Below are positions 16,306-18,167 of a stretch of 64,000 nucleotides of DNA, in pieces. How positions within the stretch are numbered: position 1 is the stretch's first letter; every line of letters starts with the position of its first letter. Both the position numbers and the translations under genes were made by a program. The notes below the pieces were generated by a model that worked only from the letters and a program-made list of their open reading frames with translations, had not been told where the DNA came from and searched no databases. The stretch comes from a virus. The stretch lies in the IMG/VR virus record IMGVR_UViG_3300028786_000007, positions 36,524 through 100,523 of that record; one strand, written 5' to 3'.

Positions 16306-17604
16306 TTATGGGCGCGCAGGCGCGGCCGGGATGTTGGGGACGAAGGTCGCGGCGGGCTGGCTGGGCGCAGGGAGAAGCATTTTGCCCAGCTCCGCGATAT
16401 TGCCCGGCAGCACGACCAAATTCGACGGCAGGCCGTGAGCCTTCAGGCCATCACTTAGCCCCTCAAGTGCACGGATAGTGGCTAGCCGTTCCAGGGTCGC
16501 CATGACCGGCGCAATTTTATCCGCGGCGTAACGGTCATTTAGCGCTTTCTGTACAATCGGATCATATTCGAAGGTCGAACCCCACCCGATATAGTCGAGG
16601 GTGATGCCGAACTCCTTGATCAGGTACTCGCGCACCTCGTCCTCGGCTCCGATTATATCCTTGCCATCTGCGCCCTTGCCGCCGTTGATGATGATTTCCG
16701 CATCAGCGTTGATCTCATCCACGGTGCGCACCGAGAAATATTTGCAGAGCAGGCTTTGCAGCTTACCCTTGACCACCGTATCCATGGCCTCGGTGAGGTT
16801 CTTGCCCTGGAACACGGACTGCCACTTCACTTGCGGATCGTCACGGTTGCCCTGAATCGGGCGGATGCCGAACCGGTAAAGAAAGCGTGGCGCGTCTTTC
16901 TCAAACACAGACGCCGCAATGGAGATCTCCACCGTGATGTCATGGCCGCCCTTCGATTGGCATTGCAAGGATTCATTGCCATCGCCCGTGCCACCTTTGT
17001 TCCGCCATTCCCGAGCATAGGGCGCACGATCAACGATGATCAACCGTCCGGCCGGCACGAAAAAGTCGAAGGTGTAGGAGGAGCCGGCCAGCTTGGTGTG
17101 GGGGATGTCGAAGCGCTTGACAGCGATCTTGTTCTCCCGGTAGTAGGCTTCCGAGCCGAACTCCGTTTGCGACGTCTTGTTGTCGCCGACGTCCGGCAGG
17201 TAGAAGGCGCTCTCGTTGGGCGCGACCCAGTAAACCTCCGGATAATTGGTCTTGTCGTAGTAGGCGCTCGCCGGCTGGGCAGACGTTGCCAAGGTCAGGA
17301 CCAGGGCCGCTGTGGTCAGCGCCGCGATCAAGGCTTTGCCGGGCTTCCACCAAATCCACACGACCAGCAGTAGGAAGACCAGGAAGGGGATGCCCAGCTG
17401 CGGCGCGAGCTTCATGCCGTAGGTGGACGTGACGTAACTGACATCGTCGGCCGCGAGCTGGCCACCGGCCGCCTTACCCGCGGCGAGCGTCGCCACTGGA
17501 TTGAGCAGGTGATTGAGGAACGCATAAACGCAATACAGCACGAGGGTAGAAAGTGCGCGGAGGGCCAATGAGGAAGCCCGCAGCGCAGGAGGCTGCTCTG
17601 TCAT
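16306..17604 (-). CDS. SPFH/Band-7-like membrane protein
   Basis: N-terminal hydrophobic segments, then VAPNESAF, LQCQSKGGHDITVEISI, EFGITLDYIG; true start at 17604 (AAGGA RBS) because the longer ORF overlaps a tRNA. Confidence 0.6.
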   Translation of the reverse strand: MTEQPPALRASSLALRALSTLVLYCVYAFLNHLLNPVATLAAGKAAGGQLAADDVSYVTSTYGMKLAPQLGIPFLVFLLLVVWIWWKPGKALIAALTTAALVLTLATSAQPASAYYDKTNYPEVYWVAPNESAFYLPDVGDNKTSQTEFGSEAYYRENKIAVKRFDIPHTKLAGSSYTFDFFVPAGRLIIVDRAPYAREWRNKGGTGDGNESLQCQSKGGHDITVEISIAASVFEKDAPRFLYRFGIRPIQGNRDDPQVKWQSVFQGKNLTEAMDTVVKGKLQSLLCKYFSVRTVDEINADAEIIINGGKGADGKDIIGAEDEVREYLIKEFGITLDYIGWGSTFEYDPIVQKALNDRYAADKIAPVMATLERLATIRALEGLSDGLKAHGLPSNLVVLPGNIAELGKMLLPAPSQPAATFVPNIPAAPARP

Positions 17605-17638
17605 GAAAGATGTCCTTTTGGTTGGAATGCCAGGCCAT

Positions 17639-17712
17639 TGGAAGGGTGGATGGGAGTTGAACCCACTTATCCGGATTTGCAATCCGTCACATGACCGTTC
17701 TGCCACCACCCA
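17639..17712 (-). tRNA. tRNA-Cys (GCA), CCA encoded
   Basis: TGGGTGG TG GCAGAACGGTCATGT G ACGGA TTGCAAA TCCGG ATAA GTGGG TTCAACT CCCAT CCACCCT T CCA; U73 discriminator; 1:72 and 27:43 mismatches. Confidence 0.9.
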
Positions 17713-17725
17713 TACAATTAAAATC

Positions 17726-17873
17726 CCCTAGCAGGTCAGGAGAAAATTGTCCCCCAACTCCTGAATTCAGAAGCGGTCTTACTACCTGAAGGCTCAGGAT
17801 TTTACAGCCGTCGTAGTTTCAGGGCCATTGGCTTACGTGCCGCACGCGTGTACCTACCACGCCGCCGCTAGGG
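17726..17873 (-). ncRNA. tRNA-like structured RNA with expanded central arm
   Basis: Closing stem CCCTAGCGG/CTGCTAGGG, D-arm-like GCGTG-GTAGGTA-CACGC, 3' arm TCAGGAG/CTCCTGA, nested internal helices. Confidence 0.55.
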
Positions 17874-17921
17874 TTTACTCAGCGGCCGTTGATCACCGGC
17901 CGTGAGAAGCTCGTTAGGTGG

Positions 17922-18167
17922 TCAAGATACCTTGACCCACCGCATCGTGGTCTGCAGGAGTTGATCGTAGTCGCCGGCCATCGCTTCATTGCGATAGGCG
18001 TCGCGCTCCTCCGTGGGAATGCCAGCCCGGCGCATCGCCTTGGTGACGAGCGCCATAATATTGAAGGCGTTGCCATCCGCGCCGGTCAGCTGCACTTCAA
18101 TGTCCGGGTATTTCGGACCCGTCGCTTCCGGTTCCACCGCCTCCGGCTGGGCTGTTTCTTCGCTCAT
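17922..18167 (-). CDS. Phage hypothetical protein
   Basis: 81 aa, AAGGA RBS; VQLTGADGNAFNIM motif recalled from other phage proteins. Confidence 0.7.
   Translation of the reverse strand: MSEETAQPEAVEPEATGPKYPDIEVQLTGADGNAFNIMALVTKAMRRAGIPTEERDAYRNEAMAGDYDQLLQTTMRWVKVS

Follow-up and report, generated by a model that had tools for sequence, protein, structure and literature searches.

We identified what is probably a real, uncatalogued structured RNA element of about 150 bases in an uncultured soil phage, located directly ahead of a tRNA-Cys gene. The element is non-coding, its fold is kept in a related phage, and a hairpin near its 5' end (designated H1) recurs in other phages. We give a probability of roughly 45% to the reading that this element yields a discrete, stem-closed small RNA that would be cut from a tRNA co-transcript, similar to RNAC and RNAD of phage T4, with the conserved hairpin serving as a recognition module.

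Genomic context of the element

The window, i.e., the whole stretch of DNA that was analyzed (64,000 nucleotides), belongs to the record of an uncultured soil phage (G000; 100.5 kb, estimated to be 76% complete). DNA of this phage was present in a root metagenome run, possibly the origin of the record, and near-identical pieces were detected in soil metagenome runs; none of the public runs found to contain it is an RNA run. On the minus strand, a gene for an 81-aa protein is followed by a 209-nt gap that contains the element, then by tRNA-Cys(GCA) and by a gene for an SPFH/Band-7-like protein (Table 1). The element lies on the same strand as the flanking genes. Its distance from tRNA-Cys, for which the initial annotation of this DNA had given 13 nt, was confirmed (17713-17725), and the SPFH gene starts 122 nt beyond the element, with tRNA-Cys in between. 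The match of the 432-aa protein to PF01145 (E = 1.3e-4, 22.5 bits) is slightly below the cut-off of 23.6 bits; this domain was present in most homologs of the protein. No ORF of at least 40 aa was found inside 17726-17873 on either strand. The sole ORF of this size that touches the element (17603-17731, plus strand, 42 aa) overlaps it by 6 nt, and two short plus-strand frames, of 32 and 25 aa, are within it or cross it. Because a scan of the minus strand found no promoter-like site, co-transcription of the element with the flanking genes would be the simplest assumption. A gene on the other strand, ~4.3 kb from the element, presumably encodes an RNA ligase (its annotation is unchecked).

The GC-rich hairpin that precedes the element is directly followed by GCUGAGUAAA. 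Its counterpart in the related phage is a GC-rich hairpin with CCGCUGA after it (hairpin + GCUGAAAAC at the equivalent place). This hairpin and its linker may act as an mRNA 3' stabilizer and a cleavage linker. Homologs of the 81-aa protein were examined at nine unrelated loci, where neither a tRNA (ARAGORN) nor sequence similarity to the element was found. As a separate observation, window positions 17921-17987 matched deep contigs (depth 570-1300) in three soil metagenome runs at <90% identity. These contigs match the 3' end of the 81-aa gene only, and some abundant element seems to carry the conserved end of this family of small proteins.

Table 1. Features of the element and its neighborhood in the window. 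Element positions (p) are numbered on the minus strand, where p corresponds to window position 17874-p.
Feature	Window position	Strand	Evidence or partner
81-aa gene	17922-18167	minus	phrog_1933
GC-rich hairpin CGGCCG-N8-CGGCCG, after the stop of the 81-aa gene, then AU-rich linker	17883-17902	minus	
Whole stem-closed element, 148 nt	17726-17873	minus	fold prediction; no Rfam family; syntenic element L030:2686-2844
P1 closing stem, 5' strand, p1-9	17865-17873	minus	pairs with 17726-17734
CG linker and hairpin H1 (GCGUG-GUAGGUA-CACGC)	17846-17864	minus	identical 19-mer in L012/L026, L014, L029
P2, 5' strand GCGG, p31-34 (with CCGC, p98-101)	17840-17843	minus	pairs with 17773-17776
P3 (p66-69 with p90-93) around P4 hairpin (p76-80 with p85-89, loop GCCU)	17781-17808	minus	
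Conserved GUAAGACC block, p92-99	17775-17782	minus	identical in G003
P5, 3' arm, p110-116 with p132-138, 15-nt loop	17736-17764	minus	
P1 closing stem, 3' strand, p140-148	17726-17734	minus	
tRNA-Cys(GCA), encoded CCA	17639-17712	minus	ARAGORN; Rfam tRNA 48.8 bits
SPFH/Band-7-like gene, 432 aa, 34 nt past the tRNA	16306-17604	minus	PF01145

Predicted structure

All stems described in the initial annotation are present as standard pairs. The 9-bp closing stem (P1) is present as CCCUAGCGG/CUGCUAGGG and includes one G·U pair, the 2-nt CG linker is followed by the D-arm-like hairpin H1 (p12-28) with standard pairs throughout, and the 3' arm UCAGGAG/CUCCUGA (P5) lies beside the closing stem as described. 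The central arm held up in part: GCGG/CCGC, CCUGA-GCCU-UCAGG (p76-89) and ACUAC/GUAGU can all pair, but ACUAC/GUAGU is not conserved in the related phage. Since ACUAC/GUAGU and CCUGA/UCAGG both claim G89, one of the two is limited to 4 bp; in the comparative fold, ACUAC/GUAGU is replaced by GCUG/UAGU.

The fold of the initial annotation (-39.1 kcal/mol) is not the minimum-energy fold (MFE, -59.6 kcal/mol). The MFE fold retains the closing stem and the 5' hairpin, pairs the center differently and places the 3' arm in an alternative register (p116-124 with p131-139, 6-nt loop). The comparative fold as drawn is ~19 kcal/mol above the MFE, and alternative pairings are conserved too. The minus strand folds with a z-score of -2.9 (2 of 200 shuffled sequences folded equally well), compared to a weaker -2.07 for the plus strand, and the G·U pairs also favor the minus strand. 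With its flanks (241 nt), the element has a z-score of -2.8, and the closing stem survives in this larger context. Near-identical variants from soil differed at one position within the element (U105C) and at six in the adjacent 181 nt. This variant, found in two soil runs, affects an unpaired position of the comparative model but disrupts an inner helix of the MFE fold. A candidate pseudoknot between the H1 loop (GUAG) and CUAC at p58-61, with CUACC upstream in the contig L012 described below, was inconsistent across members and was rejected.

By our rough estimate, a 9-bp closing stem would occur by chance in about one in five GC-rich spacers of 210 nt. A lone stem of this length is thus not rare, and the case for the element rests on comparative evidence and not on the fold alone.

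An orthologous element in a related phage

The only close relative found was the phage G003 (locus L030, IMG/VR), which was detected via the alignment of SPFH homologs. Its SPFH protein is 67% identical to that of G000, the genomes are syntenic, and nucleotide identity is ~70% in the stretches aligned by BLAST. As in G000, an element (~159 nt, L030:2686-2844) lies between the homolog of the 81-aa gene and the SPFH gene. BLAST detected no primary-sequence similarity between the two elements, suggesting that the conserved feature is pairing. P1 reads CCCUGCGCAG/CUGCGCAGGG in G003, with three pairs double-changed, one pair inserted and the boundaries unchanged, and the CG linker after it is kept. 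In P2 (CUUG/CAAG in G003), all four pairs are exchanged yet complementary, a weaker correspondence that was placed by eye. In blocks aligned by MAFFT, there is a single double change in P3 (U68-A91 to A-U) and another in P4 (U78-A87 to C-G). P5, placed by eye in the register of the initial annotation, has two double-changed pairs and two pairs that are now mismatches; the G003 sequence is also compatible with the MFE register of the 3' arm. The comparison involves one ortholog, with the P2 and P5 correspondences set manually, and MAFFT with RNAalifold misaligned the helices of the two orthologs. A pattern built from the block shared with G003 had no match besides G003 itself. H1 is absent from the G003 ortholog, which indicates that the element can exist without this hairpin.

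These changes bear on the possibility that the element has no function and is a chance fold in a GC-rich spacer, with H1 as a coincidental or DNA-level motif. Chance would accommodate a single 9-bp stem and an inner-helix alignment with one ortholog that is partly manual. However, the fact that P1 remains paired, with its boundaries in place, despite three double changes and the insertion of one pair argues against it, as do the H1 data presented below, and we regard a functionless element as improbable.

Four of the substitutions in G003 occur jointly: U78, A87, A112 and U136 are changed to C, G, G and C. Since the four positions change together, both pairing modes of the CCUGA and UCAGG segments are preserved, and this dual pairing could reflect either a switch or two hairpins that share a stem sequence. 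In the former case, read-through into tRNA-Cys and the SPFH gene might be controlled by the element, acting as a conformational switch or attenuator. The two copies each of CCUGA and UCAGG permit mutually exclusive pairings, the MFE fold adopts the alternative register, and a predicted terminator-like site (17743-17724, then TTTTAATT) can form from the 3' arm and the 3' strand of P1. However, the terminator hairpin is weak (7 pairs, 3 of which are G-C), terminator-like sites are no more common than in shuffled sequences, and no clear equivalent of this hairpin was seen in G003. Moreover, the natural U105C variant disrupts the inner helix of the MFE fold, which G003 lacks, nothing indicates a ligand or sensor, the Rfam scan of the window gave no riboswitch match at E≤10, and the joint change might be due simply to two hairpins with a common stem sequence. 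A switch therefore appears an unlikely primary role for the element.

At the position of the tRNA gene, G003 has an odd 92-nt tRNA-like RNA, and its tRNA-Cys, 82% identical to that of G000, is located elsewhere, in the main tRNA array. Judging from the two gene orders, the downstream tRNA appears to be exchangeable, with the element staying in place.

A hairpin module shared with other phages

The most conserved part of the element is the D-arm-like hairpin. The CG linker and H1 together read CGGCGUGGUAGGUACACGC and are identical in three other phage lineages. In IMG/VR, the H1 18-mer was found in two contigs (L012 and L014), both of which match over 21 nt. Searches of JGI metagenomes with the 19-mer gave four matches: the L012 contig a second time (L027), a contig closely related to it (L026), an independent contig (L029) and a match that appears to be coding (L028). 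The 19-mer lies within 20-21 identical nt in L012/L026, L014 and L029. It had no exact match in 185,579 species genomes, and blastn of the locus and H1 against 50,697 phage records detected matches to the tRNA-Cys part or chance coding matches only. No proteins were common to G000, G001 (the L014 phage) and G002 (the L012 phage) at E = 1e-5.

The H1 copy is non-coding in L014 and probably non-coding in L012; in L029, where open frames extend past the end of the contig, it could be either. In the window, L012/L026 and L029 (cut by the contig end), the hairpin is located just inside a stem. No clear stem encloses the L014 copy, which is flanked by tRNA-Met and a sub-threshold tRNA-like match and is followed by a start codon after ~40 nt. 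The L012 element (z-score -3.05) consists of a 13-bp closing stem, CG, H1 and two further hairpins, and its architecture is the same as that of the window element. Its 3' part contains a 5-bp hairpin with the loop UGCAAAU, stacked on the closing stem and followed by a U run; this last hairpin resembles a T arm by eye, and no tRNA model scores it. The closing stems of L012 and L026 differ at two positions, resulting in a G·U pair and a mismatch near the outer end, and all differences in the second hairpin are at predicted unpaired positions. Scans of the L012, L014, L026, L029 and G003 loci against Rfam 15 at E≤10 revealed tRNAs and noise only.

Separately, L012:2166-2424 and L026:451-709 form a non-coding block of ~260 nt that is ~96% identical within unrelated flanks in the same metagenome. 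In this block, which resembles an RNA gene that is either mobile or strongly conserved, three hairpins precede the stem-closed element with H1.

Degenerate H1 patterns were also searched. Nearly all of their matches were coding and did not pair, as chance matches would look. One candidate, L102, pairs but lies inside an ORF and was rejected as a member. Another, L019 (GCGCG/CGCGC), is non-coding, and its surroundings are not clearly structured (z-score -0.9).

With regard to a chance origin, an 18-mer would be expected approximately once or twice in a collection of that size (a rough estimate). However, both 18-mer matches extend to 21 nt, four more 19-mer matches came from metagenomes, the secure copies are on the gene strand, in DNA that is non-coding or probably so, and the L012 element repeats the same architecture. 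Thus, H1 appears to be a real, sequence-constrained module. The H1 stem is invariant among secure members, and its hairpin form is deduced from complementarity only since no stem covariation occurs. On the basis of these sequences we propose a candidate new family of H1 hairpins, defined by the sequence CG-GCGUG-GUAGGUA-CACGC in non-coding DNA and usually enclosed directly by a long closing stem.

Comparison with tRNAs, Y RNAs and other phage RNAs

The initial annotation described the element as an unclassified cloverleaf RNA that mimics tRNA. The first part of this description was borne out: the element is structured and non-coding, and Rfam 15 gave tRNA only for the window, with nothing credible up to E = 10. 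The second part was not. A sequence was considered a tRNA if it reached the Rfam RF00005 gathering score (29 bits) or was called by ARAGORN; no Rfam tRNA match covered 17726-17873 at E≤10, and ARAGORN was negative. With introns allowed and thresholds lowered to 80%, ARAGORN called tRNA-Cys and left the element uncalled (calls made in its mitochondrial mode were meaningless). The element has no GTTCRANYC-type T loop, the loop of the 3' arm being 15 nt (6 nt in the MFE register), and no 7-nt anticodon loop on a 5-bp stem, the central arm ending in the tetraloop GCCU. TTC and CCA had been reported as missing. In fact, UUC and CCA triplets occur inside the element, and the statement holds in that neither forms a T loop or the 3' end. 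The suggestion of a decoy for anticodon nucleases has no basis, as there is no anticodon-like loop.

There is a partial likeness to canonical tRNAs and to long-acceptor allo-tRNAs (8/4 and 9/3; PMC5389517), which includes the 9-bp terminal stem, the 2-nt linker and, as for an acceptor stem and D arm, a hairpin with GG in a 7-nt loop after the linker. Unlike these RNAs, the element has no T arm and no anticodon loop, is approximately twice as long (148 nt) and is not scored by tRNA models.

A Y-RNA-like scaffold had also been proposed, and this reading is likewise not supported. The element does resemble YrlA-class Y RNAs, which occur in phages, in having a closing stem formed by its two ends, within which lie several helices, among them a D-arm-like hairpin (PMC4201824). 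Y RNAs are recognized by a same-strand Ro60 gene within 4 kb, a 5' GNCGAAN0-1G motif and a T stem-loop (PMC4201824). In contrast to YrlA and other Y RNAs with Ro60/Rsr, the record of the element has no Ro60/TROVE gene, and the element has neither a GNCGAA motif nor a T arm. PF05731 (TROVE/Ro60) had no match in G000, G001, G002 or G003, whereas the control genomes matched; the absence from G000 is not absolute because this genome is an estimated 76% complete. Even CGAA is missing from the 148 nt, as is a T stem-loop. Apart from tRNA, none of the scanned Rfam models, which may or may not include YrlA, matched the element at E≤10.

A parallel by location is offered by RNAC and RNAD of phage T4 (species 1 and 2 RNAs), small RNAs of the phage tRNA region whose function is unexplained (PMC3014915, PMC9697503). 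Like these, the element is small, non-coding, situated in a phage tRNA region and larger than a tRNA. The T4 RNAs, however, are located inside the main tRNA cluster, whereas the element accompanies one tRNA upstream of an SPFH gene. They are also known transcripts, whereas the element is known from sequence and is likened to them by location and not by sequence comparison.

A possible link to the SPFH protein

Burroughs and Aravind (2016) predicted that a Band-7 protein is paired with a tRNA-like RNA beside RtcB, according to the summary in 10.1101/312249. The SPFH/Band-7 protein encoded downstream, with the element as its RNA partner, could be a phage version of this pairing. In G000 as well as G003, the element and a tRNA or tRNA-like RNA lie directly ahead of the SPFH gene, an arrangement similar to the non-coding RNA ahead of Band-7 in the predicted system (10.1101/312249). 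However, the band-7-associated tRNA is described as having a strong resemblance to a real tRNA and RtcB as its neighbor (10.1101/312249), whereas the element is not tRNA-like and PF01139 (RtcB) is absent from G000-G003. It is the adjacent tRNA-Cys that, unlike the element, would have the resemblance to an authentic tRNA attributed to the band-7-associated RNA.

The wider survey of SPFH homologs also speaks against such a partnership. A tRNA ahead of the gene on the gene strand was present in 0 of 29 other viral and 0 of 29 genomic homolog loci, and none of these loci, which do not include G003, contained an element-like sequence (the survey does not extend to the contigs that encode homologs P0003-P0010, with 50-54% identity). 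Many homolog loci have almost no upstream gap, although ORF calling is noisy in GC-rich DNA. The presence of what we take to be an RNA ligase gene ~4.3 kb away, an unchecked annotation, would fit this reading. On balance, we consider it quite improbable that the element is a partner of the SPFH protein.

Other structured RNAs in the phage lineage

Several further structured RNAs were observed in these genomes. The tRNA-Cys of G000 has a U1·U72 mismatch atop the acceptor stem, U73 and an encoded CCA; that of G003 has G1-C72 and compensatory changes in the acceptor stem, and is located in the main array and not at the SPFH locus. The odd tRNA-like RNA with two T-arm-like hairpins was found at L030:2864-2955 and L097:1609-1729, i.e., at the SPFH locus in G003 and in the 5' array in G000, the resemblance between the two being a weak alignment. 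ARAGORN assigned it to Ser(cga), and its score with the Rfam tRNA-Sec model was no more than 20.6 bits. In the same 5' array of G000, L097:1485-1598 (114 nt) matched the Rfam tRNA model from end to end (43.5 bits), suggesting a tRNA with an insertion of ~40 nt, and the neighboring L097:422-605 had a sub-threshold tmRNA-like match (29 bits versus a cut-off of 47).

Elements of ~190 nt with closing stems of 9-10 bp were detected at L097:1088-1277 (G000) and L094:13747-13935 (G003), directly ahead of a main-array tRNA (tRNA-Asn in G000 and tRNA-Cys in G003). In addition, G000:279-415 is closed by a 13-bp stem. The predicted folds suggest that this phage lineage carries several stem-closed RNAs beside tRNAs.

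Possible function and significance

For the reading that we favor, a small RNA released from a tRNA co-transcript, we infer co-transcription, processing, stability and action in trans of the putative RNA. A minus-strand transcript would span the 81-aa gene, an RNA of ~150 nt, tRNA-Cys and the SPFH gene. Host RNases would probably cut the AU-rich single-stranded linkers on either side and release the RNA, RNase P would cut at the 5' end of the tRNA, and the GC-rich 9-bp closing stem would then shield the ends of the RNA. Within this stem would be H1, with its GUAGGUA loop and the CG before it, then a central arm that is long and interrupted, and the 3' arm. H1 would be the functional module and, since its sequence is fixed across unrelated phages, would most likely dock a host protein or RNA.

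An alternative places the function in cis: the element would be a processing or stability spacer that insulates the 3' end of the upstream mRNA from excision of the tRNA, protecting this mRNA from exonucleases after cleavage by RNase P or RNase E, and would have no function as a free RNA. Its position exactly between mRNA and tRNA in a co-oriented unit, the AU-rich linkers on both sides, its persistence while the tRNA cargo changes and the rapid drift of its primary sequence are all consistent with such a spacer. However, a simple hairpin would suffice for this purpose and one is already present (17883-17902), a 148-nt multi-helix fold together with an invariant 19-nt module in unrelated phages exceeds the needs of a 3' stabilizer, and the L012 element terminates, as an independent gene would, in a U run. 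We therefore view a purely cis-acting spacer as rather unlikely.

We offer as a tentative proposal that the element and its counterparts with H1 represent a new modular family of phage sRNAs, in which the invariant H1, held directly within the closing stem, would dock a conserved host factor of tRNA or RNA processing; in G000, the duplicated CCUGA/UCAGG segments would allow a switch between two folds. If this is true, the element would be a decoy or regulator that acts in trans and is built on a portion of a tRNA, and not a tRNA mimic.

Extra small RNAs have long been known from the tRNA regions of phages, with T4 RNAC and RNAD still unexplained (PMC3014915), and the element provides an added case with comparative support for its fold. 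The 19-nt hairpin module, identical in unrelated soil phages, offers both a bait for pull-down experiments and a search pattern. If the module binds no host factor, the element would be one more structured spacer in a tRNA operon; if it does bind one, this binding would point to a shared target of RNA-based takeover or counter-defense by phages.
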